The notes under the pieces: model-generated
The model's input: only the letters and a program-made list of their open reading frames with translations
Told to the model about the DNA's origin: nothing
Database searches by the model: none
Part shown: positions 42 to 29,249 of the stretch, piece by piece
Layout: each line of letters begins with the position of its first letter
How positions within the stretch are numbered: the first letter of the stretch is position 1
NCBI GenBank assembly: GCA_963737175.1
Contig: CAVTRQ010000019.1
Coordinates: 52,521 to 116,520, forward strand
Origin: an uncultured Acidobacteriota bacterium
Lineage (GTDB): Bacteria; Acidobacteriota; Terriglobia; Terriglobales; Acidobacteriaceae
Length of the DNA stretch: 64,000 bases
Reading direction: 5' to 3'
Made by a program: the position numbers and the translations under genes

Positions 42-317
42 CTAGGTGTACTGCATGCGCAAACCGCACCTTGCCTGTAGGCCAACCAAAGCAAGATCGA
101 AGGCTGGCGCAACCCATGAGATTACGGTGCGCACCGGACTGTAGGCCGCCGACTCGAAGATGAGCATCTGGCCGGACTTCTCCTGCCCCCGATGCCGCAG
201 CTTGCGTAACAAGCCTAGCGCCATCATCCAGCCAAATAGCTCTTCGGTCCTCTTCTCAAAATCCCTCGAAGGAGGTATCGGAAAACGACTATCGTTAGCC
301 CCCTGGCTTCCGTCCAA
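42..317 (-). mobile_element. C-terminal remnant of an IS5/IS1182-type DDE transposase (truncated)
   Basis: ORF contains 'KRTEELFGWMMALGLLRKLRHRG...ESAAYSPVR', which resembles the conserved C-terminal 'E..FGW.K....LRK.R.RG....AAAYNL.R' signature of this transposase group (recalled from memory). No N-terminal catalytic part is present; the neighbouring gene 295..1356 takes its place. Confidence 0.4.
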
Positions 318-1356
318 GCTTCAAGGCTAATTTTTGTGCAACAAGGCCCACCATGTTCATATGGATGACACTCGGTCGCACGATAGGGTTGGTCCCGAAC
401 TTCTCAGCAAAGAGCGCTTCGGCATGGGAATGATAGCTGTCAAAGTCGAAGTTTAGGCCGCGGCTCACGGCAAACTTGATCGCCTCCCAGACGAGTACAC
501 TGTTGGCTCCAGGAATCGCAGCAGCAGGATCTCTGCTTGATTGCCAGTAGAAGAGCATCTCTTCGTCCCAGACCAAAATCGATACGGCTGCCGGTCGTCC
601 GCGATCATCACTTGCGCATAGGATCGTAGACTGCTTTCGCTCCATAGTCGCCGCTACAAGGCGCCGAATTGGCTCACAACGGCGCCTACTCATTGGTTGA
701 CCGTGCTCCCGTTCAAACATCTCTAGAAATACCTCTATATCGCCGGTATGCTGAACTTCCAATTTCTTAGAGGAGGCTCGAATGGTATTCCGCGTCTTCA
801 GGTCGAGGTCGTCCCAGTACGAGTCTATGTCCATCCCAGCGGGCAATCTGAATGTAAAGTCCTGCTCGATGGTACAGCCGGCCATGGCGAACGGAAAAGC
901 GCACGGATCTTCCGGGTCGAGGAACAGATGAAAACGGTCATGCTTCGGCAGCGCATCCATTAGTCCCTGCACGACCTTGCGAAGATTTCGTTTGTATCTG
1001 CCGAGCTTTGACGGAGGTAATGTGAGCATGGGCCCGTGTGTACGGGTGAACGGCGGAAGCTTGAGCAATCGCAGACCGTAAACACTCTCCCTGACGAAGC
1101 AAAGCGCAGCGACCACCTTACCGTCCCACTTGACCTCGACCCGCTCAAGGGCGTCACCGCCAGAAGCCTGCAGCCACCAATCCTGCTGGAACAATCGTCC
1201 CGCAATGCCGGTTTTCGCATCCCTTGGTTCCGCTTTCTCCTTATTCGCAACAGCGAACAACCTGGGGCCTGACTCCCCTGTGTGTGTGTTAGAACTGGCA
1301 ACCGGTGATTGCATGTTTGCTCCCTGAACCAGAGTTCGGATTGCCGAAACTTTCAT
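295..1356 (-). CDS. FemAB/CelD-like GNAT acyltransferase (Acetyltransf_6-type)
   Basis: 353-aa ORF. The C-terminal half 'LFYWQSSRD...GANSVLVWEAIKFAVSRGLNFDFDS' looks like the FemAB/CelD (BioF2-like) GNAT fold often found in polysaccharide loci. The family call is from memory. Confidence 0.5.
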   Translation of the reverse strand: MKVSAIRTLVQGANMQSPVASSNTHTGESGPRLFAVANKEKAEPRDAKTGIAGRLFQQDWWLQASGGDALERVEVKWDGKVVAALCFVRESVYGLRLLKLPPFTRTHGPMLTLPPSKLGRYKRNLRKVVQGLMDALPKHDRFHLFLDPEDPCAFPFAMAGCTIEQDFTFRLPAGMDIDSYWDDLDLKTRNTIRASSKKLEVQHTGDIEVFLEMFEREHGQPMSRRRCEPIRRLVAATMERKQSTILCASDDRGRPAAVSILVWDEEMLFYWQSSRDPAAAIPGANSVLVWEAIKFAVSRGLNFDFDSYHSHAEALFAEKFGTNPIVRPSVIHMNMVGLVAQKLALKLGRKPGG

Positions 1357-1378
1357 TTTTATCCCTGTCGTTTATAGA

Positions 1379-1405
1379 GTAAGCAGTGACATAGTAAGCA
1401 GTGAC
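1379..1405. repeat. Tandem direct repeat GTAAGCAGTGAC x2 (15-nt spacing), candidate operator or 5'-UTR element of the 295..1356 gene
   Basis: Identical 12-mers at 1379-1390 and 1394-1405, about 23 nt upstream of the ATG at 1356 (minus strand). Confidence 0.6.
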
Positions 1406-1558
1406 GCAAAACCCGCAGAATGTTGCTCTACATTGGGTATTATCTTTCGACGCGAGGCGCCACAACGCGGAGATGCAATGCTACGTGGGGGGGACGCCCA
1501 CGCATCGCAACGAGTATCGCACGGTCTGAATGTTGCATCAGCGTGTCCAGTTGAGTGG

Positions 1559-2419
1559 TCACGCTAATCCCACTTTTGGGACGCAGCACCCTACTTGCTG
1601 CTGCCCGCTTGGTTGGGCCGGCCTCAAGGGCTTCAGCAGTTGAGGTCCGGCGCTGAATCGCGATTCGCGAGTCCTCGCTCTCTGCTCCGGCAAAGAATCT
1701 TCGTCCAAACAGAAGCTCAGGTTGCACCGAAAGGCAAATGCCACCAAGGCAACTCTATCTGTAATTCGAAGCTTACCGAAAACCGAAGAGAGGTGATGCC
1801 ACACGGTTGTTTCGGAGATAAATAGCCGGGTGGCAATTTGCTTATTGCGCAGCCCGCGACAAACCAAGCTGACAACTTCCATCTCACGATGCGTCAGCAA
1901 ATCAAAGCGCTGCTTTGCGTCGTATTCGCTGGAGGGCCGGGTGAAGACATGATCCAAGAGGGCTTCGGCATCCTCTTTCTCAAGCCATATTCCGCCGTCT
2001 GCCACTCGGCAAAGAGCCTTTCTGATCTGGCGCGCAGTGCTGCGCTTGTTGATGATACCGCGCACCCCAAGTTCAAGCGCCTGCTTGCGCTCACGAGGGC
2101 TCTCTCTCATTCCGAGAAGGACCAGTCTCGAATTCTGGCGAATACCCTTCAAGCACTCAAGGGATTCTTCATCAAAACAAGAGATCATTCCCCACTCCAC
2201 GAGTGCGATGTCGAGCGATTGACAATCGGTTTTCTGTTTCAATGCGCGTAGGTCCTGCGCCTCGCAAGCTATGTTGATCCTGGTATCAGATTCGAAGCTC
2301 TTTTGCAGTCCTACGTACACCATCGGGCAAGGATCGCAGACAACTACGTTCACCCTGTTGTGAATAAGCTCTTCTTCACTCACCTTTGACTCTCCGTTGA
2401 AAAGTTTGACAGCGCGCAT
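1559..2419 (-). CDS. LuxR/NarL-family transcriptional regulator with degenerate receiver domain
   Basis: C-terminal HTH 'LTHREMEVVSLVCRGLRNKQIATRLFISETTVWHHLSSVFGKLRI'. The N-terminal REC-like region aligns to NarL, but the acidic pair is 'CD' and the phospho-acceptor position reads 'LDIALVEWGM' (Glu instead of Asp). Confidence 0.8.
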   Translation of the reverse strand: MRAVKLFNGESKVSEEELIHNRVNVVVCDPCPMVYVGLQKSFESDTRINIACEAQDLRALKQKTDCQSLDIALVEWGMISCFDEESLECLKGIRQNSRLVLLGMRESPRERKQALELGVRGIINKRSTARQIRKALCRVADGGIWLEKEDAEALLDHVFTRPSSEYDAKQRFDLLTHREMEVVSLVCRGLRNKQIATRLFISETTVWHHLSSVFGKLRITDRVALVAFAFRCNLSFCLDEDSLPEQRARTRESRFSAGPQLLKPLRPAQPSGQQQVGCCVPKVGLA

Positions 2420-2501
2420 TAGTGGACTGAAGTATAAAACATGCAGGGAGGCACTCGCCTACCCACTATCGAGGCGTTGCAATATACCGCGCTACTGCAC
2501 T

Positions 2502-2891
2502 TTAGTCAGCACTCAGCACCAAGACGCGGCACTGTATCGCAAAGCCGCTTGGGGTGCCGCTCTGTGTCTCGTCTCGCAAAACTCTTCCTACTGTTTCGGC
2601 GACCGTGCATGCGAGTGGTTGCGGGCCAACCTCCAACGCCGGAAGTAACACCTGGCATCGAACAATAACCTTCGCCGGTGGAGCGTGAACTCCAAATATG
2701 TATATTCCACCCGTGCTTAGGTCGCGGGTAATGCCTTCTTCAACCCGTGTCAGGTTGTTGACTTTCCAACAGCACAAGACCGGTGCATTGGCGAGGAAAC
2801 GTTGATATTTACGGCGTTGCAACATCGCGCGCATCCTTTTTTTCGATCTGCAGCCAAAATACCCGTCGATTGTCTTCTGCAAAAGAGACAA
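2502..2891 (-). CDS. Single-domain PilZ protein (putative c-di-GMP receptor)
   Basis: Both PilZ signatures are present with normal spacing: 'QRRKYQRF' (RxxxR) and 'DLSTGG' (DxSxxG). The true start may be the internal Met in 'MRAMLQRRK'. Confidence 0.7.
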   Translation of the reverse strand: MSLLQKTIDGYFGCRSKKRMRAMLQRRKYQRFLANAPVLCCWKVNNLTRVEEGITRDLSTGGIYIFGVHAPPAKVIVRCQVLLPALEVGPQPLACTVAETVGRVLRDETQSGTPSGFAIQCRVLVLSAD

Positions 2892-3199
2892 ATTGCTCTT
2901 TATTTATTGGCGGCGACAGAGTCACTGTACTTTGGGACATTGCCCAGATGCGCTTCACAGATTGTCATACAGCTAAAAGTACAAATGTCCTTGGTAAACA
3001 GACGGGGCTGACGGAAGCATTATGCGTGTAGCCTCGAAGGTTAGCGGCACCATGACATCACGCAAAGAGCGCAGCAGTGGCAGAAATCGCTGTCTGGGCC
3101 TCACATAACTGAAGACATCCATCTACTGCTTGCCATCTCCTCGCGTAAACACTTCCTGTCTACTTGCGCCGTAAAAACAATAATAAAGTCGGCATCCTG

Positions 3200-4552
3200 C
3201 TAGTTATCAAACCTCAGCTCCACAATCACCGGATGATCGGGAACGCTCAATCTTAGTTGAGAAACGTTTGAGAGCTTGTTTGCTGGATCGACGCCCTGCA
3301 TGGGGTAGTAGATTGAGGCCGTACCAACCGGCCTTGTCAAGATCAGAGTCAACTCCCGCGGTGGCACAATCACCTCCGTGTGCAGCCGGGTGTTATAACT
3401 CGTGACCTCATGCCATAAAACCAGGTAAAAACGACCATCGTGCTTTTGCAAAAGTAAATGATGAATACCCGTTGTGTCTCCCGCTAAGCCGTACTCCAGA
3501 GTGCCGGAGTGAGTGGTCGGAGTTCCATCGTTCAATAGCGCTATAAAGTTGGCTAGCGAAACGAAAGCTGGCTTCTCGCTTCCGTCATTGCGCACCAGCC
3601 CCCAGTGCAGTTCATGATCCTCTGCACCGGGGTCTGGAAGTTCGTCGAACAGCTCATATAGGTAGGTCCGTACGACTCCATGGTTGTAGTTTTCAAGAAA
3701 CAGCCTGGAAACGTATTTCGCGGCCGCGTTCTCCGAGATGGCAGGCTGATCCTTGTGGTCGCCAAAGGCGTTATGGTAACCGCTTTCCGTCATAATGACC
3801 GGCCGCTGTCCATAGATGTTCCTGGCTAGGTCGGGTTGTTCAGGGAAGACCGTCGTCGGCAACTCCCCTGCTGGGTAAGAGTGCAGGTTCCCATAGTCGC
3901 AGATGGCGCTCAGATCGCCCACCTTTACGCCATTGGTAATGAAGGCCATTGAAGGCGCAATCACTGCGATTTGAGACAGATCTGAGCTGTCCTTCACAGA
4001 GTGATATATCTCAGCCTGAAAACTCCTGGCATCACCGATCCAATTGTCGCCCCCGCTCAGATCCAGTTCATTCGGACCTTCGAAAGATTCAACCAGATGG
4101 TGCGACAACTCTACTATTTTTCGAAGAGTCTCTGGCGTAGCGAGCTTGACCGAGCCACGCGGATCGAGAATTGCATTGAAGTGAATTCCGATCGATCCAA
4201 GTTGTACCCATCGTCCGTACATCTCCTGGTTGTAGTCATCACTCAATAGCTGGGCTCCGTCTCGGAGATGGTGGACACCCAGAATTGATAGCTTGGAGCG
4301 GACCAGAGAGAAGTTCCCATATAACCGGTCGTAGTAGTTGAGATGAGTATTAATACCAATGGATTCGGTAAAGCTATACGCGCTCTGCGCTGTTTCTTGC
4401 GTGATAACTGTATTTGCGTGCGCATCAGCCGATTTAGCTTTTGTCAGCCTGGAAAAGACCTTATACCCTGCCAGGCCTGTTGAGAGCACGATCACGACAA
4501 ATAACAACCCTGTCGAGTGCGCATTGCGGTTTGCCATCACTGACATAGGCAC
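3200..4552 (-). CDS. Membrane-anchored glycoside-hydrolase-like protein (clan GH-A TIM barrel plus C-terminal beta domain), paralog of 6609..8156
   Basis: N-terminal TM 'GLLFVVIVLSTGLAGY'. Putative acid/base 'FEGPNELD' and nucleophile 'IMTESGYHN' motifs. Collinear similarity to ORF 6609..8156 ('GINTHLNYY', 'LGVHHLRD', 'RTYLYEL', 'WGLVRNDGSEKPAF', 'HHLLLQKHDGRFYLVLW'). Confidence 0.6.
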   Translation of the reverse strand: MPMSVMANRNAHSTGLLFVVIVLSTGLAGYKVFSRLTKAKSADAHANTVITQETAQSAYSFTESIGINTHLNYYDRLYGNFSLVRSKLSILGVHHLRDGAQLLSDDYNQEMYGRWVQLGSIGIHFNAILDPRGSVKLATPETLRKIVELSHHLVESFEGPNELDLSGGDNWIGDARSFQAEIYHSVKDSSDLSQIAVIAPSMAFITNGVKVGDLSAICDYGNLHSYPAGELPTTVFPEQPDLARNIYGQRPVIMTESGYHNAFGDHKDQPAISENAAAKYVSRLFLENYNHGVVRTYLYELFDELPDPGAEDHELHWGLVRNDGSEKPAFVSLANFIALLNDGTPTTHSGTLEYGLAGDTTGIHHLLLQKHDGRFYLVLWHEVTSYNTRLHTEVIVPPRELTLILTRPVGTASIYYPMQGVDPANKLSNVSQLRLSVPDHPVIVELRFDN

Positions 4553-4638
4553 CCTACTCGTAACGAGTTTCGATTCGTCCGATCTTTCTTGCGCAAAATT
4601 GCGACGGAACGTTGGCCAGCCTCGCGAAGTAAGAAATA

Positions 4639-4776
4639 TTATGCAGCGCGAAAGAAATATCCCAATTCATTGTTAATTCGCGTCCCGCAAATGCACGTAA
4701 CTGTCGGGGCGTGTAAGCCGCCATGGACGCTCTGCACTTTTAAAAAGCGCATACAAGTGGGACACGTGATAGTCAT
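4639..4776 (-). CDS. Possible small MJ0042-type zinc-ribbon protein (45 aa)
   Basis: 'MTITCPTCMRFLKV...VTCICGTRI' gives a CPxC...CxCG arrangement typical of MJ0042-family zinc fingers. The ORF is short with no other support. Confidence 0.3.
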   Translation of the reverse strand: MTITCPTCMRFLKVQSVHGGLHAPTVTCICGTRINNELGYFFRAA

Positions 4777-5130
4777 CCACTCTTGGGACCGCTCCGGTTC
4801 TTCCGCCGCTCGATTCGGAAAGCTCATTTTGGCATCACTCCGATTATTCTGTGACAGACCGCAACGAAATATATTGTTTGAACCTTTTTAGTGTTGCGTC
4901 GGCGTTAGCCTATGCAATCTCCTTGCTGTTGCATCGGAGATCGCTCCGCTCCTTATGCTGCTGCAACGGACAATTGTAAGCAATGGCAGAAAACTGTAAT
5001 TCGAGATAGCCTACCCGGAACATCCGGTCAAGAAGTGACTAGGAGTTCTGGTCGAGGAAACTGCCGAGCAGGGAATGAACATCGCAGTACGAGCGATCGG
5101 GACGAAGGACACGCCGGATCATGCTCCGAT

Positions 5131-5217
5131 GGAATAGCCTACTTCGTCAACTACGCTGATGATCTAGTGATCTGCTGTAGTGGCGGAGCGGAAACTCCTG
5201 GCAGAAATGCCGGCTGA
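5131..5217 (+). pseudogene. Reverse-transcriptase remnant (group II intron/retron-type YADD motif only)
   Basis: 'GIAYFVNYADDLVICC', with YADD at 5152-5163, resembles RT motif 5. No other RT motifs were found in any frame upstream. Confidence 0.25.
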
Positions 5218-5229
5218 TGATTTGTAAGA

Positions 5230-6105
5230 TCACTCTTCAAGGCCTGCTCGCCAGAGAGGCTTTAATGTCGTGACAGCGCGTTCGGCGTCTTGATGTGGAG
5301 TGGGAACGGCGTTACGAACGCTTTGCCAGATCACGACCGTATCGTCGGCGTCTGGTCCGTAGCCGATCTCAGATGAGGCGTAGGAAAGCGTCTTTGCGTA
5401 CCATCTCTGAAAGGCGGAAGAGGAATCGATAATGCTTGCGTAGACCGGATTATAATAAACGACAAAAATGTGCGTCGCATCGGATAACAGCGCCGCTTCT
5501 AGGTTGTTTATCAACCTTGACATCAGCTCCGGGCCAAAGGCGTGGTACATAAACAATACTAGATGACCCTTTGGCAGCGGTGTGGCTACGGCGTCTGATT
5601 CAAGGATGGAAATATCCGGGCGGCTCGGGAAGTTACGCTTGATCTTTTCGGCGTTTGTTCGCGCGATTTTTGCTAGTTTATGGGAGAGCTCAATCCCGGA
5701 GATGCTCTGAAAATGAAATTCGCTGCCAAGGACAGTAATACGACCCTTTCCGCAACCTAAGTCAACTAGGGTATAGGTTTCGATATTTCCCAGCGCGTTG
5801 AATGCTTGGCGAACAATACTGGGTTGCGCTCCCACATATCCATTGACGGATTGGCTGAACTGCTTATCGTAGAGTCGATTGGCCGGGATCATATCGCTTG
5901 TATCTATTCCATAGAGGTCATCGATGGGGTGCCTGCGCACGTGACGCCAGTTAGGATGGAGCTTCTGGACAAGAGGAATTTGACACAAGATTTGCTTCAC
6001 ATTAGAAGCAAATGGAATTTGACAAAGGAGTTGTTTTGCAGTGGCAAGAATGGATAGCTTGATGGACGCGTTGGGGAGCTGCGCTGTTGCCTTTGTCTTA
6101 TACAT
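5230..6105 (-). CDS. Class I SAM-dependent methyltransferase
   Basis: Motif I 'LVDLGCGKGRITV' followed by 'GIELSHKLAKIARTN'. The N-terminal ~50 aa contain a 13-aa duplication, so the true start may be downstream (for example the GTG in 'RHVRRHPIDD'). Confidence 0.75.
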   Translation of the reverse strand: MYKTKATAQLPNASIKLSILATAKQLLCQIPFASNVKQILCQIPLVQKLHPNWRHVRRHPIDDLYGIDTSDMIPANRLYDKQFSQSVNGYVGAQPSIVRQAFNALGNIETYTLVDLGCGKGRITVLGSEFHFQSISGIELSHKLAKIARTNAEKIKRNFPSRPDISILESDAVATPLPKGHLVLFMYHAFGPELMSRLINNLEAALLSDATHIFVVYYNPVYASIIDSSSAFQRWYAKTLSYASSEIGYGPDADDTVVIWQSVRNAVPTPHQDAERAVTTLKPLWRAGLEE

Positions 6106-6608
6106 TGGTGTCCTGTTATGAGTCGATGTTGTTGATCCGTTTGTGAGCGGTTGTTGTATGCGCTATCAAAGAGTTCACTGCGTTTTAAGCTTCGTGTTGG
6201 CCGTCAATCACCGTTATCGAACGGTCGTTCAAATTGACTTGACTGCAGCGTCTCAGTTCCGTAGAACACTCACGGTAGATGCGCTTCCTTCGCAACTTAG
6301 CGGCTTGGAGAAAGCTTTGTCCTGGCTATCTTCCCGGGGAGTCAACGCAACACCGGTTGGCATGCATCAAACGCCTGCATCTGGGGCCGCGCTCATTCTG
6401 GCGTCTTATTGAGAGGCGTGACAGAGTGTTAAGGTCTGGACATTACGTCGGTGCTACGACCTCCGTAACCATAGTGCGTAACAATCGTAAAATGAACAAC
6501 ATGCTGAAATACACCTAGAGCTATTCGGTTCAACTATCTGGAGATGTCAGCGGATTCTCTGAGGTGAGTAGCTGGAGCAAAGCCGTATTGTGTCTTCGGA
6601 GAGCCTCC

Positions 6609-8156
6609 ATGAAACGATTGTTTTCGATGGCCATTCTGTTCTGTGCAATGACGATTGCAAGCTTTGCCAGCGTCGCTGTCTCGTCACCCACCAAGGGCGC
6701 CGCTGTTCAGTCACCGGTAGAATTTGTGGCCAGTGCCACCTCCAAGTTCCCAATCACCGAAATGGTCATCTATGTTGATACGAAGGATGTGTACACAACT
6801 GATTCGGCGAGTCTGAACACTAATATCCCGATGTCCAGCGGCAAACATGCGATTGTCGTGGAGGCCTTGGACAGCAGTGGCAGGAGTTCTTCCTCCGCTT
6901 TGACCCTGGTCGTTCAGCCTGCGCTGTCGTCGACGACGCCTGCTGTGCCTGTCGCACCAGTAACGTTGCCTATCGTTGAGGCTCAGATGGCGGATAGCTT
7001 TGTGGACTCCGTTGGCTTGAATGTCCACTTCAGCTACTATGGGACTGTCTACACTACCCAATTGCAGCAGATGCTCACCAATATCTCCACGCTTGGTGTT
7101 CGTCACTTAAGAGATCAGATGGCGTGGCAGGGCGCTAGCTCTGGCGCCCCCTTCTATTTGGTCCACAACAGCTTAGGCGCGATGGGGGTCAAGACAGACT
7201 ATATTCTTACCTCGATAGACTACCCGATGAGCCAAGTCCAAGCATATCCGACTCTTGTCGATGACATGGAAGCTGTTGAGGCCTCCAACGAATATGACGC
7301 GTCCGGTGACGCCAACTGGGTGCAGAACATACTGGCTCAACAAAGCGCGCTATATGCCCAGATCCATGACGCATCCTCGACACAGGGCATCTCAGTGCTC
7401 TCTCCGTCTCTCGCACAACCTCAAAATGCATCGCAGCTTGGCGCTATTAGCGATATCTCAGATGCTGGAAACTCTCATGCCTACTTCGCCGGCTGGAATC
7501 CAGGAAATTCGGGAACAGGAGGAGCGAACAATCCAGCGTATTTCATGGCGTTGGCACTCGCAAATACTTCCGCCGAGCCAATCTGGGTAACCGAGTCGGG
7601 CTACTGGGCTGAGCCCGGCCCGTACTTCGGTGGGGGTGGGATCAGTGAGGCTGCCCAGGCGATTTATAGCCCGAGACTGATGCTGGAGTTCTGGAACGCG
7701 GGCGCACGCCGCACGTATGAATACCAACTGGCGGATGACTCGAGTGATACTTACTTCGGCCTGCTCCGATCGGACGGTTCAGTCCGGCCCGCGTTCGGCG
7801 CAATGGCCAATCTACTAGGGTTGCTCAGTGATCCCGGAGCAACCTTCCATCCCGCTGGCCTCGCCTACAGTCTGTCTGGAGGAAACTCCCAGCTTCACCA
7901 TGCTCTGTTTCAAAAGCGGGATGGGTCCTACTATCTTGCTTTGTGGATTGAAGCTCTGAGCTACGACTTTACTAATTCCGTACTCTTGACCGTTCCTTCG
8001 CAGCAGGTCTCGTTGCAACTCGGCAGCCCCGTAGTATCTGCCGCCGCCTACCAGTGGGACGATGCGGGCAACATGACTACTACGTCCATCCCTGCCGGTC
8101 AGACGATGACGATCAATGTCACGGATAAGCTGCAGATCATTAAGCTTGTTCCGTAG
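6609..8156 (+). CDS. Secreted glycoside-hydrolase-like protein (Ig-like domain plus clan GH-A-like barrel), paralog of 3200..4552
   Basis: Signal peptide 'MKRLFSMAILFCAMTIASFASVA' with GGAGAG upstream. N-terminal Ig-like module. 'VEASNEYD' and 'IWVTESGYWA' catalytic-type motifs. The ORF track starts at 6564, but the ATG at 6609 gives a canonical signal peptide. Confidence 0.6.
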   Translation: MKRLFSMAILFCAMTIASFASVAVSSPTKGAAVQSPVEFVASATSKFPITEMVIYVDTKDVYTTDSASLNTNIPMSSGKHAIVVEALDSSGRSSSSALTLVVQPALSSTTPAVPVAPVTLPIVEAQMADSFVDSVGLNVHFSYYGTVYTTQLQQMLTNISTLGVRHLRDQMAWQGASSGAPFYLVHNSLGAMGVKTDYILTSIDYPMSQVQAYPTLVDDMEAVEASNEYDASGDANWVQNILAQQSALYAQIHDASSTQGISVLSPSLAQPQNASQLGAISDISDAGNSHAYFAGWNPGNSGTGGANNPAYFMALALANTSAEPIWVTESGYWAEPGPYFGGGGISEAAQAIYSPRLMLEFWNAGARRTYEYQLADDSSDTYFGLLRSDGSVRPAFGAMANLLGLLSDPGATFHPAGLAYSLSGGNSQLHHALFQKRDGSYYLALWIEALSYDFTNSVLLTVPSQQVSLQLGSPVVSAAAYQWDDAGNMTTTSIPAGQTMTINVTDKLQIIKLVP

Positions 8157-8174
8157 AATTGGGATCGAACTTGA

Positions 8175-8897
8175 TCACAGTGTCGGGCTCTGCGCCCGCA
8201 TCCCGGTAGCATTACTTGTCAGATGGAGTGCGACTTCGACGCGATTCGATACACCAAGCTTTTCGAAAATCCGCGAAAGATAGTTTCTGACCGTGTGCTC
8301 GCTTAAATTGAGTTTGCGCGAGATGTCGCGATTGCCTAAGCCTTGCCCGACCAGATCGGCAATTTGTTGCTCGCGTTTCGTCAGAGCGGGGATAGTTGTA
8401 TTCAAGGCCCTTAGTGGGGCGCTCACCGCCAACGCCTTAAGGATTGATTCCAATTCCGAATTGCTGACCCAGATCTCTCCATGATGAACCCGGTCGATAC
8501 ATTTCGCGAGATGCGCGAGAGGTTCTTCCCGGAATACTATGCCGCGAGCCCCGCCCCGAAACGCAGCAACGACAAGGTCGCGATCACGCGCTTCCAGCAG
8601 GATTACTACTCGGACCTCAGGATACAAGCTGTGAATCTCACGCAGGGCCTTGAAGCCGCTCAGTGCTCCGTCTTGCAGATGGCCGCTAATTAGCATCACG
8701 TCCGGTTCTGCAGCGGCCGCATCGATGGTCTTCTGAACACCGTGCCCACACCCAATCACTTTGAAAGACTTGCGCGAGCGCTGAAGGTTTTCTGAAATCG
8801 AGTCGCAAAACATCTTGCTCGAATCAGACAATACTAACCGGATTGTCTCTGCTTGGGTTGGCTCTGGCATCTTCAATCCGAGACACGGGGGTTGCAT
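8175..8897 (-). CDS. LuxR/NarL-family transcriptional regulator with degenerate receiver domain
   Basis: HTH 'LTKREQQIADLVGQGLGNRDISRKLNLSEHTVRNYLSRIFEKLGV'. In the REC-like region the acceptor position reads 'PDVMLISGHL' (Ser instead of Asp), the acidic pair is 'SD', and the conserved Lys position is Arg ('IVFRE'). Confidence 0.8.
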   Translation of the reverse strand: MQPPCLGLKMPEPTQAETIRLVLSDSSKMFCDSISENLQRSRKSFKVIGCGHGVQKTIDAAAAEPDVMLISGHLQDGALSGFKALREIHSLYPEVRVVILLEARDRDLVVAAFRGGARGIVFREEPLAHLAKCIDRVHHGEIWVSNSELESILKALAVSAPLRALNTTIPALTKREQQIADLVGQGLGNRDISRKLNLSEHTVRNYLSRIFEKLGVSNRVEVALHLTSNATGMRAQSPTL

Positions 8898-9030
8898 TTG
8901 AGTGCTCCTTGTAACAAAAAACTACTGCCGGGTTGAACCGTACGGTTGTAAATACCTGGAGTTGCCTTCGGACGAAAACGGTAGAGTGAACGCGGCTATG
9001 AACGATGGCGTGTTCGCCTCGGCAACGCAT

Positions 9031-9615
9031 TCATCCGCTTGCGAATCGCTCCAATTCATAATTGTGGAGCGAGAGTGCAACCGACTGACCGAGAAGTTCC
9101 ACGGAAACGACTAGCTTGCGCTCGTCCCCATTCCCAATCAGGACGCCTTCAACACCGTCGAGCGAACCGCCGCGTATGCGTACCCGCTCGCCGAATTTAA
9201 CAAAAGCATGTGGCCCAACCGGTACTCCGCTGCGCAATACGGTTTGAATCGCAAGAATTTCTTCTTCGGGTATCGGCGAAGGGCGTCCTTGGAAGCCAAT
9301 CCAACGCAACACGCTCGGATGCTGCAATACGGTTGCTTGCACCTCGGCGATGATCGTTGTAGAAACGAAGACGTAGCAGGGAAAGAGGGGAACTTCTAAG
9401 ACTCTAACCCGATCACTCCAGCGGTGAACTTCGCGTGAGACCGGAAGAAATGTCTCTACACCTCTGTCCTGCAACTCCGCTGCGACCTTCTTTTCGTGCT
9501 TGGCGCGGGTGTGAATCGCATACCAATGCTGAGTATCTGCAGCTGTCGACGTAGTATCCGAGAGAGGCAACTGCACGTTCTGCATACTGAGCACCTTTTC
9601 GCCTGCTGGCCCCAT
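9031..9615 (-). CDS. NusG paralog (RfaH/UpxY/LoaP-like specialised antiterminator)
   Basis: NGN motif 'WYAIHTRAKHEKKVAAELQDRGVETFLPV...PLFPCYVFV' and KOW 'GERVRIRGGSLDGVEGVLIG'. It lacks the ribosomal-operon context of housekeeping nusG. Confidence 0.75.
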   Translation of the reverse strand: MGPAGEKVLSMQNVQLPLSDTTSTAADTQHWYAIHTRAKHEKKVAAELQDRGVETFLPVSREVHRWSDRVRVLEVPLFPCYVFVSTTIIAEVQATVLQHPSVLRWIGFQGRPSPIPEEEILAIQTVLRSGVPVGPHAFVKFGERVRIRGGSLDGVEGVLIGNGDERKLVVSVELLGQSVALSLHNYELERFASG

Positions 9616-9856
9616 ATACTCCTCCTGCTCCCACGTACGGTCAGGGTTCGTCTTACATACGGATTCCCAGTCTCCGCTTATGCCGCATTTGTGTGCGGCG
9701 GGTATTCAGATTTGCTCTGCGTCGCAAGAATGAGAGTTCGTTCTCTCGTACCGCCCCAGCTCTGTAATCCAGAAGGTTTGGAAGTGGCGTCAGCCGATGG
9801 GCTCAAGAGCTTCGAAGTCGCGCAACGGACAATCCAACCTTAGAGTCTTGGATACA

Positions 9857-9881
9857 GCTTCGCCCTCAAAGTCACATCCGA
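9857..9881. repeat. Copy 1 of a 25-27-nt direct repeat GCTTCGCCCTYAAA(AA)GTCACATCCGA
   Basis: Read directly: 'gcttcgccctcaaagtcacatccga'. The second copy lies 228 nt downstream, inside the ORF-free region 9616-10814. Confidence 0.85.
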
Positions 9882-10002
9882 GGGCTGCTCCGGTTTGCAG
9901 TTCGCCGCGGTGATGCCACAATTTCCTACTTCAAATGTTTTGCTTTGGTAAGCACTGTCCTACGTTGAAATCTTTCAAAAGACAGATCACCTCGACAACA
10001 TG

Positions 10003-10033
10003 GTGTGAATTGCGTTACCGCTCCGATTCACAC
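10003..10033. repeat. Inverted repeat GTGTGAAT-N15-ATTCACAC between the two direct-repeat copies
   Basis: 8-bp perfect arms at 10003-10010 and 10026-10033. Confidence 0.6.
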
Positions 10034-10084
10034 AGACTCGAGTCTTACGGAACATGGCATCAATGTGGTTCCTCGTACACTGTT

Positions 10085-10111
10085 GCTTCGCCCTTAAAAA
10101 GTCACATCCGA
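10085..10111. repeat. Copy 2 of the direct repeat
   Basis: 'gcttcgcccttaaaaagtcacatccga'. It differs from copy 1 by one C>T and two extra A. Confidence 0.85.
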
Positions 10112-10814
10112 AAGAAAGAATCATTTACGGAGTGCTCCGTAGCAGAATCCTGCTTTGTCCTTTGTACGATGGCTCATTTTGGAGGAATGCTGCCTTCTAA
10201 TTTCTGAAATTCGAGTGTTCCTCAATTTATTCGGAAGCAAGAACCTTAATACACACCAGCATAGCTGTAGCCCCGTTCCAGAGCACACTGAACCTTATGC
10301 AAGGATGTCATCTTTCAACGCAATGAAGGCAAGCAACTTAAGAAGCAACAGAAAAACCTAGGAGGACTTAGATATATTTAGAGGTGTCTACAACGCAGAT
10401 TCGCTCAAATGCTAAGGAGACGTTCGCCAGCGCGGCAAACTCTTCCACCCATGGCGCTTCCGGAACTCTGCAACGCAGTTCGAACGAATTCCGCAATTCT
10501 GCTCGTGGTTATTTGGCGTCAAAGTGCAGCGAATGTTCGCGAATTGTTCGCGGGCAGAACTCGCCTCCCATCGCTGCAAAGTTAAGGATTGCCCGCTCGA
10601 TGCTCAACCTTGGTGTTTTAACAGCACCGTCAGTCGCCGGTAGTCGAACCCGTAAACGGGGCCGCCCCGGCAGTTCGTGCAGACGCACTCACAGCGCCGC
10701 CTGCGGGGTGCGGTGGTGCATATAGCGTTCGGTCATTCGAATAAAGCAAACTCCAGCTTCATCGCCACTCTCGAAAAACGTCAAGGCCGCACAGGAATGG
10801 GGCGCGGAGCACCG

Positions 10815-11687
10815 TCACTGCCTTCGATCCGCAAACTTGTGCGAGCGGCCAATCTTATAGCCCAGAAATTTCGCTCCCGAGCGCAACATCACGCTGGGGA
10901 TCTTCCAAGGGGCTTGCTTGGCGATCAAGGCAATTTCAGAGGTAATGAAGCGCAGGCCCTCACCCGAAGTTCCTCCGAACTCGCGCAGCATCCAGGCGTG
11001 CTCGGCATGCAGTTCGCCTACATATTTGTATCGCTCGAATTCCTGCCGCCACGTATAGTCATGCGAGTGGAACACCTCGGCTTCGGCCACATATGCAATC
11101 TTCCATCCCTTTAGCACAAGCCTGGCTGTCACCACAGTGTCTTCGCCGAAATTTACATCCAGCGGAAAACCTCCCACCGCCTGCAGCGCGCTGCGTCGGT
11201 AGGCCCCAAAGGAGTTGGAGAAGAAGATCGCCTTGAATCCGAGCGTGCCAACGCTCTCCCGGCTACGCACTGCTGAGACCGGTGGATAGTTGAACAGCCG
11301 CGCGTGGGCCTCGATCGGCCCAGCCCCCTTGCGCGGCAACTGCCGTCCGTATGCCGCTCCCACCGACGCGTCTTCGAACGGATGCAGCAGTGCTGCAAGC
11401 GAATCTGAGTTGGCCAGCAAAGCATCCTGGGTAAGATAAACGAGAATCTCCGAGTCGCATGCCAGGTCCACCGCAAGCTGCCGAGTCTTTCCATGCCGGA
11501 ATTCCTTCCGCGCAATGGGCAAGACGTAAAAGCCCTCCCGCCGTGCCAGTTCAGGGGTGCCATCCGTGGACTCGGAATCGATCACAATGACCCGCTGCGG
11601 CGCCACACTCTGAGCATTCAACGCCGCGGCAAACTCTTCCCATTGATCAGCGGCATTCAAGGTGGGAACACAAACCGTAAAAGTCAT
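10815..11687 (-). CDS. Family 2 glycosyltransferase (rhamnosyltransferase-like)
   Basis: GT-A N-terminus 'TVCVPTLNAADQWEEFAAALNAQS...VIVIDSESTDGT' and 'YLTQDALL'. It is the last gene of the EPS operon. Confidence 0.75.
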   Translation of the reverse strand: MTFTVCVPTLNAADQWEEFAAALNAQSVAPQRVIVIDSESTDGTPELARREGFYVLPIARKEFRHGKTRQLAVDLACDSEILVYLTQDALLANSDSLAALLHPFEDASVGAAYGRQLPRKGAGPIEAHARLFNYPPVSAVRSRESVGTLGFKAIFFSNSFGAYRRSALQAVGGFPLDVNFGEDTVVTARLVLKGWKIAYVAEAEVFHSHDYTWRQEFERYKYVGELHAEHAWMLREFGGTSGEGLRFITSEIALIAKQAPWKIPSVMLRSGAKFLGYKIGRSHKFADRRQ

Positions 11688-11758
11688 AAACGTAACGTTT
11701 CCGCGATTGCAACTCTACCCATCTTAGCTTCGGCGCCATCCGATCTGCAACTTACCGT

Positions 11759-12319
11759 TCAGATCGCAAACCAGTAGTCGTAGTCGAGTTTGTAGCGCAA
11801 ATCCTTTGAGCGATGGCGAATAAAGCGCGCTGGGTTGCCGCCCACAACCTCATAGTCGCCAACGTCTTTTGTAACGACCGACCCAGCGTACACCACGCAG
11901 CCCTTTCCCAGCGTAACGCCCGGCATAATAAGCACATTTGAAAAGATGCACGCAAAATCGCCGATCACAACCTCTTTCCCCTTGGTAGCGAAAAAGGGAT
12001 CGTCAATGTCGTGTCCTAGCGTATATATTTTTGTGTCATGCGCGATGGAAACATTGCTGCCGATCCGGATGCCTACTCTGTTATCGAGATAGCAGCCGTA
12101 ATTAATGACTGAATTCTCACCGATACTGATGCGTCGCATGCCAAAGAAGCGTGCGGGAGTGTGAATAACACTTCCTCTCCCGATGTTCACTCCCAATGCT
12201 CGCAGGAGCACATTCTTCAATACAAAGAAAGGCATCCAATTATATGAGAGATTAAACACCCGGATCACCAGGTTCTTTAATTGCCGTGTAGAGCGCCGTT
12301 CAGGAGCGTTTACGTGCAT
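11759..12319 (-). CDS. Hexapeptide-repeat O-acetyltransferase (WcaF/maltose O-acetyltransferase-like)
   Basis: Left-handed beta-helix repeats 'IGENSVINYGCYLDNRVGIRIGSNVSI' and 'VVIGDFACIFSNVLIMPGVTLGKGCVV'. The start overlaps the upstream stop (TGATG at 12317-12321). Confidence 0.8.
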   Translation of the reverse strand: MHVNAPERRSTRQLKNLVIRVFNLSYNWMPFFVLKNVLLRALGVNIGRGSVIHTPARFFGMRRISIGENSVINYGCYLDNRVGIRIGSNVSIAHDTKIYTLGHDIDDPFFATKGKEVVIGDFACIFSNVLIMPGVTLGKGCVVYAGSVVTKDVGDYEVVGGNPARFIRHRSKDLRYKLDYDYWFAI

Positions 12320-13227
12320 CAGCCTTCCCTCATAGTAACGTCCCTACTATGCTTCTCTTCAGTAGCGCCGTTGCGCAAACCGCTTATCAGGCCGGCCACC
12401 ATCCCCCGGACACGGCTCCAGTACGTTTTTCTTTTCTCTCGTTTATTAACGAAGACGAGAGCGCCAAGACAGGAGCGCAGAAGGGATCGTGCGAAACGGA
12501 AAAGCACCGAGTAGTGCCCCCTTCTGATGAACCACCCATTAAGCACACCGAATCCGATGTTATAGGCGTACTCCTTTGCAAGGTTGCTGCCCAGGTATTG
12601 AACGACAGGATGGTAAACCTGTATTGTTCCAACGTAATGCGCGGTCAACGAATTGCTCAAGACCCGCGATAGAAACTCTGTTTCTTCGCCAGACCCGATT
12701 TTTGTCCCGACCCCAAGGCGCTCATCGAAGGTTGGCCCGATTCGAAGCAATGCACCTCGTCGAATGAAGATTCCGCTCGAATTCACTAACTGAAATACAT
12801 TGCGGAATGACAACTTCTTAACAACGCCAACCGGCTGGCGTACGATCGATAGCTGTCGGTCCGGATCAAACACGTTAGTACACAGGCAGTCAACGTGCGG
12901 GTTGCTCTCAAAATAGGACACTACTTTCTGCAACAGCTCTTTCTCGTACCAACAATCGTCGTCGGGAAATCCGATAATATCTCCAGAAAATTTCTCGAGA
13001 CCTATATTCCGTGCGCCGGACAGAGAAATCTGGTGACCAACCTTCCGCTCGACAAAATCAATTCTTGCGGCACAATCCGCTGGCAGTCGAAGTTGTGCCG
13101 TCCCTTGCGACACGAAAATCAGCTCAATTTCGTCCTGAAATGTCTGGTTCGCGAGTCCAGAAGTGAAACGGTCTAGATACGTCTGCCTGTCATAACATGT
13201 GGTGATCAACGATATTTTCATATTCAC
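12319..13227 (-). CDS. Family 2 glycosyltransferase
   Basis: 'ISLITTCYDRQTYLDRFTSGLANQT' and 'GFPDDDCWY' (DxD-type) motifs. Confidence 0.75.
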   Translation of the reverse strand: MNMKISLITTCYDRQTYLDRFTSGLANQTFQDEIELIFVSQGTAQLRLPADCAARIDFVERKVGHQISLSGARNIGLEKFSGDIIGFPDDDCWYEKELLQKVVSYFESNPHVDCLCTNVFDPDRQLSIVRQPVGVVKKLSFRNVFQLVNSSGIFIRRGALLRIGPTFDERLGVGTKIGSGEETEFLSRVLSNSLTAHYVGTIQVYHPVVQYLGSNLAKEYAYNIGFGVLNGWFIRRGHYSVLFRFARSLLRSCLGALVFVNKREKRKTYWSRVRGMVAGLISGLRNGATEEKHSRDVTMREG

Positions 13228-13271
13228 CTATTGCGGCGATTATCAATCTTGCAAATCTATTTTGACTGCGT

Positions 13272-14498
13272 CTAGGTAGCCGTCGCGGCGATGATAGCTG
13301 ATGGCCCGCTCGTTTGGCTCTCTTTCACCGCCGGAGTGGCAAGGAGCACGCTGAAAGCATACAGCGTCAATAGCTCGGGATCATGACCGAGGTATTGGGA
13401 ATTAACCACGACAAAAAGTGCAGGTACAAGAAGCCAGCGCCATCGTACCGCCAGGGTTTTAAAGACAAACCACAAAAAGCAACAATAAAGTGATGCTCCA
13501 ACCAAGCCGAAGTCATAGAACTGATTCAGAAATACGTTGTGAAGATTAGTTTCCTCAAACGGGGGACTCAAGAAGTTAGCGACTGCGAAAACCCCGTGAC
13601 CGAAACAGACTTCACGCAACCCAAAGCTTGGTAGCCAGGTGAAGAAGTAATTCCATAGAAACAGCCTCGCAAGCAATCCATCGCCTTGATTACCAGCGCT
13701 GAGGTCTATGGTGGTAACCGATATGCGCATCAAGACCACTGAAAGACCAAGTAGTCCGCATACTAACAGCGCCACGATTATTCGCCGCACAAAACCAAAG
13801 CCGCTCCTGTACCGGAACAGCAGGTATCCAGAGATGCCAACCACAAACGCCAATTGTGCGGTGCGTGAGCATAGGTATACCAGAGTGAACAGGAACATCA
13901 GAAGAGCCGCTATATCGAATAGCTTCCATCGCGCCTGCCTCATGGAGAACAGCGTGAGATAGGTGAACAGCGTCTTGGTCGCCCAGAGGTTCTTGTTCTG
14001 ATCGCCGAATAGTATAGGAGCCGCGTTCTGGATTGCATACGCATCGGTGGAATCTTGAACGTTGAGGGGAAGCAACCAGAGGTGGCCAGCAATCACATTG
14101 ACCAGCGTCTGAACGAAACTCAGGGCTACTGCGGTAAACAAGGCGTAAATGATTACCTGCCTGATGCCTGCGTCACGACCATTCTTCGAGAGCCAGCTGA
14201 AGTAAGTAGTTGCAGTCAGGAAGAAGAGTGCGTTAACCAATATCCTGAAGGCCACGTCTCCGGCCCCGCCGTTGATTCCGTACATGACGGCAACGTAGAT
14301 GAGGTACAGGGCGCATCCCACCCACGCTGCTCTGGCGCGGCGAATCATCACGCCCCGGAGCGGAGCTGAAAGCAACGCGAACATCACGGAGAGTATAAAT
14401 AGGACGGAAACGGGAGGACTCCCCTTGAGTGGGGCGAAGTACACGGCATTGATCGCGACGAAGACTAAGAGTGCACTGGTCCAGCCACTGATGTTCAT
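13272..14498 (-). CDS. O-antigen ligase/polymerase-like membrane protein (Wzy candidate)
   Basis: Highly hydrophobic multi-TM protein in a Wzx/Wzy context. The start is taken at 'MNISGW' (ATG 14498), which forms an ATGA overlap with the stop of 14495..15751. The ORF track extends to 14588. Confidence 0.65.
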   Translation of the reverse strand: MNISGWTSALLVFVAINAVYFAPLKGSPPVSVLFILSVMFALLSAPLRGVMIRRARAAWVGCALYLIYVAVMYGINGGAGDVAFRILVNALFFLTATTYFSWLSKNGRDAGIRQVIIYALFTAVALSFVQTLVNVIAGHLWLLPLNVQDSTDAYAIQNAAPILFGDQNKNLWATKTLFTYLTLFSMRQARWKLFDIAALLMFLFTLVYLCSRTAQLAFVVGISGYLLFRYRSGFGFVRRIIVALLVCGLLGLSVVLMRISVTTIDLSAGNQGDGLLARLFLWNYFFTWLPSFGLREVCFGHGVFAVANFLSPPFEETNLHNVFLNQFYDFGLVGASLYCCFLWFVFKTLAVRWRWLLVPALFVVVNSQYLGHDPELLTLYAFSVLLATPAVKESQTSGPSAIIAATAT

Positions 14499-15751: not shown

Positions 15752-15830
15752 TCAGCCCTCGATGGCTTCGCAGAGCTGGAACGCTCGCGAAGACGTACCT
15801 TCCACCCGACGCGGCAGGTTGAAGTTATGC

Positions 15831-19161: not shown

Positions 19162-19211
19162 CGCCTGATCCTAACTGCGGTCAACCCTGTGCCCTTGTAG
19201 GCAATGTCTGC

Positions 19212-20441: not shown

Positions 20442-20451
20442 GCTTCCGCTC

Positions 20452-23109: not shown

Positions 23110-23241
23110 GACTGTCCGTTCGAGTCTGAATTCATTGCGAGTTCCATCATTGTCTCACCAAAGAAGAATGCTTCCATTGTTGCACGTCATGCCAGGCCAG
23201 TGCCCTGTACCGCGCCCCTCAAACACTTTGATCCGAACCGT

Positions 23242-24689: not shown

Positions 24690-24702
24690 TTTATCACGGC
24701 AA

Positions 24703-27144: not shown

Positions 27145-27312
27145 TCTGGGTCCCCCAAGAAAAAATTGAGCCCCAGAAGCCAGCGCCTACCTCGCAACCG
27201 CGAGGAAAACATTTCGTCCGGTGGGACGGAGCAGTCCCCACAGCTTCCGGATCACAGCAGCTTTTGCGACGTAATCTCAGTATACCCTGCGCACAACCAC
27301 GGAGCAGGCTGT

Positions 27313-29181: not shown

Positions 29182-29249
29182 ACCTCACCCAACCGTTGAA
29201 TTTTTCAACATCCTCCGCTTTCATGGCGACCTCCGCCCGGCCCCAGAGG

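Follow-up and report, generated by a model that had tools for sequence, protein, structure and literature searches.

Regulatory and polymer-processing genes between two exopolysaccharide clusters of an uncultured Acidobacteriaceae bacterium, with a candidate ops-like element in the leader of a NusG paralog

A block of nine genes next to an exopolysaccharide (EPS) operon was analyzed in a 64,000-nucleotide (nt) stretch of DNA from an uncultured Acidobacteriota bacterium (Terriglobia, Terriglobales, Acidobacteriaceae; GenBank assembly GCA_963737175.1, contig CAVTRQ010000019.1, positions 52,521 to 116,520), hereafter the window. An initial annotation, made from the letters of the sequence, had placed nine open reading frames (ORFs) at 295-9615, and all of them were found there intact; 6564-8156 is read from the plus strand and the other eight from the minus strand. 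The reading that we favour, with moderate confidence, is that the block forms the regulatory and polymer-processing junction of two co-oriented Wzx/Wzy-type EPS clusters, combining two sub-modules, each of which recurs on its own in relatives. The operon-head sub-module would comprise a long leader with an ops-like element, a NusG paralog of the UpxY family and a LuxR-type regulator without the phospho-acceptor Asp (LuxR2, type B), while the processing sub-module would comprise a membrane-anchored PslG-like endoglycosidase (GH_a), a second such regulator (LuxR1, similar to type A) and a FemAB-like transferase, to which a secreted hydrolase with an Ig domain (GH_b), a methyltransferase, a Cys4 mini-protein (Zn62) and a PilZ protein would have been added as lineage gains.

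The position between two clusters is given by the gene order on both sides (coordinates are listed in Table 1). EPS cluster 1 consists, according to Pfam matches and in this order, of genes for Bac_transf, PAP2/Wzi, RmlC-RmlD, Wza (SLBB), Wzz, Wzx, UDP-galactopyranose mutase, GT2/GT4 enzymes, Wzy, a hexapeptide acyltransferase and a terminal GT2. It runs on the minus strand from 28455 down to 10815, and the nine genes therefore lie downstream of it, after a non-coding gap of 1.2 kb (9616-10814) that ends at the NusG paralog. A Logan contig (L171), 100% identical to the window across 17,723 nt and reaching 970 nt past its left edge, has the FemAB-like gene followed by an insertion sequence (IS) remnant and then by a second priming glycosyltransferase gene (500 amino acids (aa), CoA_binding_3/Bac_transf; L171 18280-18693), which begins 557 nt past the window edge on the same strand; the block is therefore situated between two EPS clusters. 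It had been described as lying beside the end of an EPS operon, which is correct insofar as it adjoins cluster 1, but it is no terminal appendix of that operon. The IS remnant reported at the window edge was confirmed, as the ORF 42-317 resembles IS5-family transposases and, in the gene table of L171, has the FemAB-like gene on one side and, past the window edge, the second Bac_transf gene on the other. The absence of a histidine kinase and of a diguanylate cyclase was borne out as well: no histidine kinase or GGDEF/EAL Pfam match was obtained for window ORFs of at least 150 aa (a few ORFs overlapping longer ones were left out), and neither GGDEF nor H-box motifs occur in any of the six frames. 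Relatives met in the searches were labelled Terracidiphilus, Acidobacteriaceae or Terriglobales, and one of them (L001) is ~90% identical in nucleotide sequence; an exact-sequence look-up of GH_a (450 and 448 aa) and of the FemAB-like protein returned no record, and only that of the NusG paralog led to the source contig.

The gene at the right end of the block had been called a NusG/RfaH-type paralog and scores as a member of the UpxY family (NF033644), with 75 bits for Pfam NusG and PDB alignments that span residues 29-190. It stayed below the cut-offs of the NCBIfam models for RfaH, LoaP and NusG, and RfaH membership was rejected (TIGR01955, 65 bits vs a cut-off of 144.5). Many homologs share 70-80% identity with it, and 80 loci with homologs of the paralog (the paralog-anchored set) were analyzed. 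At five loci whose orthologs are 73-78% identical, an EPS operon begins with the paralog, as in every annotated case, and continues with an optional acyltransferase, Bac_transf, Wza/Wzc and Wzx/Wzy; three of the five (L086, L169, L170) have a glycosyltransferase gene just upstream of the paralog on the same strand. Same-strand genes for Bac_transf, Wza, Wzc, UGDH or glycosyltransferases follow the paralog at 25 of the 27 metagenome loci with at least 3 kb of downstream sequence, a LuxR gene lies within 3 kb upstream at 15 of 27, and a small PilZ ORF of the same family as the one in the window stands directly upstream at 20 of 51. In the window, the paralog is followed by LuxR2 and accessory genes, and Bac_transf comes only ~9.6 kb further. 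Neither an UpxZ-like partner nor any gene of unknown type was found after the paralog, the next gene being LuxR2 in the window and Bac_transf or an acyltransferase in the orthologs. It is known that EPS genes are enriched near NusG paralogs and that CheY-like genes are sometimes among the neighbours (PMC7593976, PMC7819879). Tandem duplicates of the paralog gene occur at three loci (L122, L142, L158), all with a PilZ ORF upstream and two of them (L122 and L158) with a divergent LuxR gene. At another locus, a match to the Rfam small RNA family Acido-Lenti-1 (L133 3603-3648(+), 51.9 bits) lies ~6 kb upstream of an EPS operon headed by the paralog.

The leader of the paralog contains a 24-nt motif, TG[GT]GACTNWGAGGGCGRAGCTRTG, which was first met there as a direct repeat and is conserved in L001, L086, L087 and L169. 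When the 20-nt core TG[GT]GAC[TC]N[AT]GAGGGCG[AG]AGC was searched in 2.1 Mb of loci with one mismatch allowed, it was present upstream of 66 of the 80 NusG-paralog genes, on the same strand; elsewhere in these loci only three hits were obtained, all in EPS-head regions, and 79 hydrolase-anchored loci (described below) gave two, both at loci that also carry a NusG paralog. Although the pattern did not include positions 21-24 (T-R-T-G), these are kept in 58-66 of the 69 instances. According to a sequence-only model of the motif (R1), a single significant copy exists in the window, ~240-265 nt upstream of the ATG of the paralog and with GCGAAGC in it, and none in the leader of EPS cluster 1 (28456-29249) or before the second Bac_transf gene. 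The leader is 86% identical to that of L001, vs 73-81%, with indels, for the other spacers. Neither in the window nor in 18 loci did the motif fall within an Rfam family, and no sigma-70-like promoter was found in the 1.2-kb leader by a promoter scan, which is uninformative for Acidobacteria. Taken by its sequence, the motif is a highly specific candidate for an ops-like recruitment site. Further copies stand ahead of non-paralog genes at two loci (L107 5339, before Wza, and L131 6377), and one operon can therefore carry two such sites; of the loci with tandem paralogs, L122 and L142 have a motif for each copy, and in L158 it was seen only before the second.

The ops element of Escherichia coli, GGCGGTAGCGTG, contains GCGGTAGC. 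The distance from the first G of GCG to the last T-G is 11 nt there and in the motif described here alike, and in either element a G+C mini-hairpin of the non-template strand is succeeded by T-G (GCGAAGC-TRTG here, GCGGTAGC-GTG in ops). If the polymerase paused at the T that precedes the last G, position -10 would be a G, in agreement with the pause consensus G-10/Y-1/G+1. The likeness ends with the RfaH model score given above and with the ops consensus itself, since matches to GGCGGTAGnnTG are no commoner than expected by chance. Mini-hairpin DNA falls into the classes GCGNAGC and GCGNNAGC, the latter including GCGGTAGC, and the GCGAAGC hairpin has been described as especially stable (PMC13037366); the invariant core of the motif, GCG[A/G]AGC, belongs to the former class, and nearest-neighbour DNA folding fails to single out the GCGAAGC hairpin. 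A helix of at least 6 bp in which the 5' half of the motif forms the 3' arm can be drawn for 43% of the instances, vs 12% of shuffles, which is suggestive of an upstream hairpin pairing with the motif. The terminator-like hairpin just upstream of the degenerate motif copy could serve either to terminate the transcripts of cluster 1 or to make the polymerase pause.

The closest known counterpart is the UpxY/UpxZ system of Bacteroides, where the opsX elements lie in the leader upstream of upxY and form hairpins with a GCG-AGC stem, aided by RNA pause hairpins (PMC11685472). Both have a locus-linked NusG paralog of the same NCBIfam family, encoded, in the case of the orthologs described here, at the head of a polysaccharide operon, and the conserved GCG...AGC-type hairpin element of the Bacteroides leader would have its candidate equivalent in the motif described here. 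Unlike in Bacteroides, the neighbours of the paralog are an Asp-less LuxR gene and often a PilZ gene instead of an UpxZ-like gene, the motif is near-identical across loci and not locus-specific, it mostly overlaps the start codon of the paralog, no invertible promoter was seen, and in the window accessory genes stand between the paralog and the biosynthetic core.

It is conceivable, though in our view doubtful, that the 24-nt motif is no loading site for the NusG paralog and instead works as a translational operator or ribosome-binding element in the RNA, or as the binding site of a DNA-binding regulator. At most loci the motif does overlap a Shine-Dalgarno-like GAGGG and its terminal (A/G)TG is the start codon of the paralog; its 5' half often pairs with upstream sequence, and some copies contain the palindrome GTCACA-N-TGTGAC. 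On the other hand, the window, L001, L086, L087 and L169 have kept it, sometimes in two copies, at a distance of 150-600 nt from any start codon, and in L107 it precedes Wza, and this argues for a role at the level of DNA or transcription. The GCG-to-TG spacing, equal to that of E. coli ops, also speaks for such a role, as does the membership of the invariant core in a DNA mini-hairpin class that is no special RNA motif (PMC13037366).

The two LuxR helix-turn-helix (HTH) proteins align full-length to response regulators of the NarL family, with Response_reg matches slightly below threshold (26.7 and 27.0 bits), and alignments to NarL, DevR and VraR agree with the initial annotation that the phospho-acceptor Asp is missing in both. 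LuxR1 has Glu at the position of VraR D55 ('DIALVEWGM'), D-P in place of the acidic DD pair and the conserved Lys, while LuxR2 has Ser at the position of NarL D59 and DevR D54 ('DVMLISGHL'), D-S in place of DD and Arg at K109. The loss extends to two subfamilies. Type A, encoded next to the hydrolases (n = 32), has D-N, Ser, Thr and Arg at NarL D13-D14, D59, S87 and K109 together with 'GGVWLE[QRK]', and none of its 32 copies retains the Asp (31 Ser, 1 Gly); type B, encoded upstream of NusG paralogs (n = 22), has D-[SN], Ser, Leu and Arg together with 'EGQIW[AV][SNT][SN]', and again the Asp is absent from all 22 (20 Ser, 2 Gly). LuxR2 fits the type B signature exactly, including the helix-6 stretch 'GxIW[AV][SN]'. 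LuxR1 has the HTH sequence and the W-L-E-K/Q helix-6 motif in common with type A and differs from it by the Glu at the acceptor site and the retained Lys. Neither protein would accept a phosphate at the canonical site, so that control would have to come from a ligand or from a partner protein.

Such pseudo-receivers are common, and biofilm regulators such as CsgD and VpsT are among them (PMC12632262). VpsT was among the PDB sequence hits of both LuxR proteins, which resemble VpsT and CsgD in the combination of a receiver-like domain with GerE, in independence from canonical phosphorylation, in the link to matrix polysaccharides and in the Trp that starts an extra helix 6. They differ in having Ser or Glu at the phospho-acceptor site, Arg at K109 in LuxR2 and both subfamilies with Lys in LuxR1, and another sequence at the W[FLM][TS]R motif: WLEK in LuxR1, aligned to a VpsT sequence that reproduces the PDB alignment in this region, and W-V-S-N in LuxR2, where the PDB sequence of VpsT has W-L-T-R. 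The Arg of this motif (R134) is essential in VpsT, and R134A abolishes binding (PMC3359988). One hydrolase-adjacent LuxR protein (L033) carries W-F-T-R, the exact c-di-GMP (cyclic dimeric guanosine monophosphate) motif of VpsT; the rest of its subfamily reads W-[LF]-[ED]-x.

The PilZ protein is stand-alone and has both c-di-GMP-binding signatures, as the initial annotation said, in the form of RRKYQR (RxxxR) and DLSTGG (DxSxxG). Pfam PilZ matches 25 of 26 members of its family, and both signatures are kept in ~30 members. The closest ortholog (74%, L084) is found in the order LuxR, PilZ, WecG, Bac_transf and onward through an EPS operon. PilZ proteins that act in EPS control (Alg44, BcsA and single-domain adaptors such as YpfA/MotI) likewise combine RxxxR and D/NxSxxG in a PilZ domain encoded with EPS genes; unlike Alg44 and BcsA, the protein of the window (~107 aa) is fused neither to a synthase nor to a co-polymerase. 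The occurrence of its family at operon heads, beside an elongation factor and a LuxR gene, suggests transcriptional rather than post-translational control.

The proteins that had been described as two paralogous TIM-barrel hydrolase-like proteins are indeed paralogs (35% identity, E 1e-60), and they appear as PslG-like (GH39-like) enzymes with intact catalytic Glu residues. In the AlphaFold2 (AF2) model of GH_a (predicted local distance difference test (pLDDT) score 87.9), a helix at residues 7-38 precedes a (beta/alpha)8 barrel and a C-terminal beta-sandwich, and its best three Foldseek matches in the PDB are all PslG (5bx9, 4zn2, 9g17; E ~2e-19, template modelling (TM) score 0.60-0.68), followed by GH39, GH30 and GH79 enzymes. 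An alignment of 39 members has R97, N161-E162, H224, Y226 and E256 (T-E-S-G-Y) invariant, which is the signature of clan GH-A, and GH_b keeps the N-E and T-E-S-G catalytic motifs. When the family profile was compared with the PDB, PslG was the best match (E 0.018), with TEsGY aligned to TEWGW of PslG. Single-sequence PDB searches with GH_a and GH_b yielded nothing meaningful, so that only profile and fold search reached PslG, and neither protein had a hydrolase match in Pfam/NCBIfam at E 0.1 or better, PF01229 (Glyco_hydro_39) included. The family holds at least 767 proteins from Acidobacteriota, Cyanobacteria, Actinomycetota, Planctomycetota and other phyla, and no Pfam/NCBIfam model recognises it. 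PslG is an inner-membrane-associated hydrolase of the psl cluster with the catalytic residues E165 and E276 (PMC9075953). GH_a and the Pseudomonas aeruginosa enzyme (GH39) have in common the barrel and beta-sandwich fold, a membrane anchor, the acid/base and nucleophile Glu and an EPS cluster as neighbour; what sets the proteins described here apart is an identity of 16-17% and the presence of two paralogs, one of them secreted and with an Ig domain. The N-terminus of GH_b reads like a signal peptide, and its gene, convergent with LuxR2, was called with 515 aa in L171.

The remaining enzymes of the block are presumably involved in polymer modification. The S-adenosylmethionine (SAM) methyltransferase call was confirmed with a weak match (Methyltransf_11, 22.4 bits vs a threshold of 21.2); other methyltransferase models stayed below threshold and the PDB hits were weak, all of them to methyltransferases. 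A sugar or the polymer is presumed to be its substrate. The CelD/FemAB-like acyltransferase proved to be an Acetyltransf_6 protein, with homologs at seven further hydrolase-anchored loci; it aligns over its full length (28%, E 6e-28) with the Acetyltransf_6 gene that ends the EPS operons beside the hydrolase in L004. It did not qualify as the PEP-CTERM/XrtA-associated FemAB (TIGR03019, 35.3 bits vs a cut-off of 260), nor as a displaced ortholog of the 585-aa Acetyltransf_6 gene after the paralog in L167, to which it has no similarity. Zn62 had been proposed as a possible MJ0042 zinc-ribbon peptide: the Cys4 (CPxC...CxC) ORF is conserved, but no hidden Markov model supports MJ0042, and Pfam/NCBIfam gave no match at E 1 or 0.1. 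Compared with L001, it has 12 synonymous and 5 non-synonymous changes without indels, the frame and all four Cys being kept, so it is probably a real gene and, to judge by its Cys pattern, probably a zinc ribbon. A 56-aa ORF that overlaps it (4554-4724(-)) and was called in the Logan assembly is probably no gene, because it is frameshifted in L001.

Conservation of the neighbourhood turned out to be partial, as sub-modules recur widely at EPS loci but the exact nine-gene order was met only in L001, where it is kept entire; it was absent from 79 other hydrolase-anchored and 80 paralog-anchored loci. Among 60 GTDB hydrolase-anchored loci of at least 15 kb (L001 included), a LuxR-type gene stands beside the hydrolase in 30, all of Acidobacteriaceae/Terriglobales type and usually divergent at a distance of a few hundred bp, 8 also have a FemAB-like gene, and 37 have a Bac_transf gene within 10 kb. 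A NusG paralog is found in three of the 60 and a methyltransferase in two, while PilZ or Zn62 is found only in the close relative. In related genomes the hydrolase gene is usually convergent to the EPS operon and divergent from its own LuxR gene. Each class of block gene recurs beside Wzx/Wzy clusters in related genomes, in line with the EPS link proposed initially, and this supports the view of the block as a set of EPS-linked regulators and polymer-processing enzymes rather than a chance neighbourhood. All nine ORFs show purifying selection in the codon comparison with L001, with more synonymous than non-synonymous changes and no frame-breaking indels.

These comparisons also bear on the possibility, unlikely in our judgement, that the block arose when IS-mediated shuffling joined head genes and tail genes from formerly separate EPS loci, leaving independently transcribed genes with a stranded NusG paralog and no integrated function. 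Such a history would fit the IS5 remnant at 42-317, a gene order unlike that of every other examined locus, the break in strand continuity at the convergent GH_b, the split or truncated appearance of Wzi, ABC/OpuAC and AcrB genes in the window, and the orthologs, where Bac_transf comes directly after the paralog or after one acyltransferase gene. Against it stand the nine ORFs, intact in two genomes ~10% apart with the substitution pattern just given, the leader that bears the motif, which is the best-conserved spacer (86%), and the second Bac_transf gene, which continues to lie downstream in the same orientation.

According to the junction reading, the block would represent the head of the second EPS cluster, fused to the polymer-processing sub-module. 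RNA polymerase transcribing the leader would pause at GGGCGAAGCTRT(G), where the non-template strand can fold a GCGAAGC mini-hairpin, and the NusG paralog would load instead of NusG, giving a termination-resistant polymerase. Transcription would run on through ~9 kb into the second cluster, starting with Bac_transf, and the paralog would therefore have its targets downstream, in cis, and leave the upstream EPS operon unaffected. Promoter activity would be under the control of the pseudo-receiver LuxR proteins, with no kinase involved, and the PilZ protein may bind c-di-GMP made elsewhere in the genome and relay the signal by protein contact, most probably with the NusG paralog or the LuxR proteins, to judge by the genes that stand beside it in relatives. 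The hydrolases would trim or release the polymer as PslG does, GH_a at the membrane and GH_b outside the cell, and the methyltransferase and the FemAB-like enzyme would decorate it.

Several observations weigh against this reading. The motif copy of the window ends in GTA instead of the usual GTG or ATG and lies ~240-265 nt from the gene without abutting a start codon, its overlap with Shine-Dalgarno sequence and start codon in most loci may point to a translational role, and the upstream hairpin, though enriched, is limited to 43% of the instances. In the path of the proposed read-through stand the convergent GH_b gene and the IS5 remnant, and the ~600-nt spacer before the second Bac_transf gene could hold a promoter of its own. 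The PilZ gene of the window is not adjacent to the NusG paralog, and no paralog was seen in L084, where only ~0.8 kb upstream of the LuxR gene is covered. The AF2 model of PilZ was unusable (pLDDT 37, from an alignment of four sequences), and VpsT-like c-di-GMP binding by LuxR1 or LuxR2 was rejected for lack of a W[FLM][TS]R motif; we infer c-di-GMP responsiveness of the block from motifs only. A bolder proposal, which we put forward as speculation with little confidence, is that the small PilZ protein is a c-di-GMP-dependent partner of operon-specific NusG paralogs in Terriglobales, an inhibitor or co-factor in the manner of UpxZ, so that c-di-GMP would gate elongation or antitermination at a GCGAAGC-hairpin ops-like site, and neither initiation nor a synthase, while Asp-less LuxR proteins would set promoter activity, the whole amounting to an undescribed head module of EPS operons.

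Least probable, and in our opinion very improbable, is the proposal of the initial annotation that the nine genes are one self-contained c-di-GMP-responsive unit which controls and remodels the polymer of the upstream operon, with the NusG paralog promoting its read-through: the block does adjoin EPS cluster 1 on the same strand, includes a PilZ protein with both motifs, has an unchanged gene order in L001 (~90% identical) and could draw on RfaH as a precedent for NusG paralogs acting in trans (PMC7593976), but the paralog gene lies 3' of cluster 1, the motif is confined to its own leader and missing from that of cluster 1 (28456-29249) and from the rest of the window, orthologs head the operon that comes after them, a second Bac_transf gene follows the block, and none of the other hydrolase- and paralog-anchored loci has the nine-gene order, its parts being separate sub-modules there.

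Table 1 Features of the nine-gene block and its surroundings in the window
Feature	Position	Strand	Basis
IS5-family transposase C-terminal remnant	42..317	-	tblastn vs plasmids: residues 17-63, 47% identity, E 3e-6
FemAB/CelD-like GNAT-fold acyl- or aminoacyl-transferase	295..1356	-	PF13480, 54 bits vs 22
LuxR1, pseudo-receiver + GerE, closest to type A	1559..2419	-	Pfam, VraR alignment
Stand-alone PilZ protein, 107 aa from likely start	2502..2825 (ORF open to 2891)	-	PF07238, 22.8 bits vs threshold 22.5
GH_a, membrane-anchored PslG-like (GH39-like) hydrolase	3200..4552	-	AF2, Foldseek, family alignment
Zn62, 62-aa Cys4 (CPxC...CxC) protein	4639..4827	-	Codon conservation vs L001
Class I SAM-dependent methyltransferase	5230..6105	-	Methyltransf_11; motif I VDLGCGKG visible
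GH_b, secreted PslG-like hydrolase with N-terminal Ig (Big_7)	6564..8156, likely start 6609	+	Paralog of GH_a; Pfam Big_7
LuxR2, pseudo-receiver + GerE, type B	8175..8897	-	Pfam, NarL/DevR alignment
UpxY-family specialised NusG paralog, NGN + KOW	9031..9615	-	NCBIfam NF033644, 115.8 bits vs cut-off 100
Non-coding leader, 1.2 kb	9616..10814	-	Between EPS cluster 1 and NusG paralog
Candidate ops-like recruitment/pause element GGATGTGACTTTGAGGGCGAAGCTGTATCC	9850..9879	-	Model R1, 29.9 bits, E 3e-8
Degenerate upstream motif copy GATGTGACTTTTTAAGGGCGAAGC	10085..10108	-	Model R1, 8.6 bits, E 0.17; conserved in L001
Terminator-like hairpin TACGGAGCACTCCGTA + T-rich run	10126..10141	-	Just upstream of degenerate motif copy; conserved in L001
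EPS cluster 1, Wzx/Wzy-type	10815..28455	-	Pfam matches

Outside the block, a 590-aa protein is encoded directly upstream of EPS cluster 1 (29250-31022(-)), with no family match save a weak collagen-like Gly-rich stretch. Several window genes look broken. A homolog of the capsule-assembly protein Wzi is split across two ORFs, 24948-25448(-) and 25501-27144(-), with model positions 7-140 fused to PAP2 and 160-317 in the other part, which points to a frameshift, a pseudogene or a fault in the assembly. The RmlC-RmlD fusion ORF (23493-24830(-)) is possibly truncated, its RmlD part covering model positions 2-187 of 287. Fragments of transporter genes were found at 38210-40457(+) and 61697-63574(+), namely a 177-aa ATP-binding cassette (ABC) ATPase, an OpuAC (model positions 165-227 of 257) and an AcrB-like protein (1-598 of 1021).

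Acidobacteria rank with the most abundant bacteria of soils, whose aggregation is shaped by acidobacterial exopolysaccharides, while the regulation of acidobacterial EPS loci is, to our knowledge, essentially unstudied. The initial annotation knew of no described system with this architecture; each part is in fact known, namely NusG paralogs of UpxY type at polysaccharide operons, hydrolases of PslG type in EPS clusters, LuxR regulators with a pseudo-receiver (VpsT, CsgD) and EPS control by PilZ (PMC11685472, PMC7593976, PMC9075953, PMC12632262), but the particular combination, in which a PilZ gene neighbours a NusG paralog and is accompanied by a conserved ops-like element and Asp-less LuxR regulators, was not found in the literature searched. 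The same appears to apply to an ops-like element of acidobacterial UpxY-like paralogs, to a recurrent head module of a pseudo-receiver LuxR, PilZ and a NusG paralog, to the two Asp-less LuxR subfamilies and to the unannotated PslG-like family. Should the parts prove functionally unrelated, the locus would still illustrate, with good annotation, the way in which head and tail modules are combined into EPS loci. Two kinase-independent LuxR families are tied to EPS loci, and members of the PslG-like family could serve as biofilm-degrading enzymes. A PilZ gene beside the gene of an elongation factor hints at second-messenger control of antitermination, and the candidate recruitment site, which uses the shortest known stable DNA hairpin, would be the third independent example of ops-type targeting, for an UpxY-like NusG paralog outside Bacteroidota.

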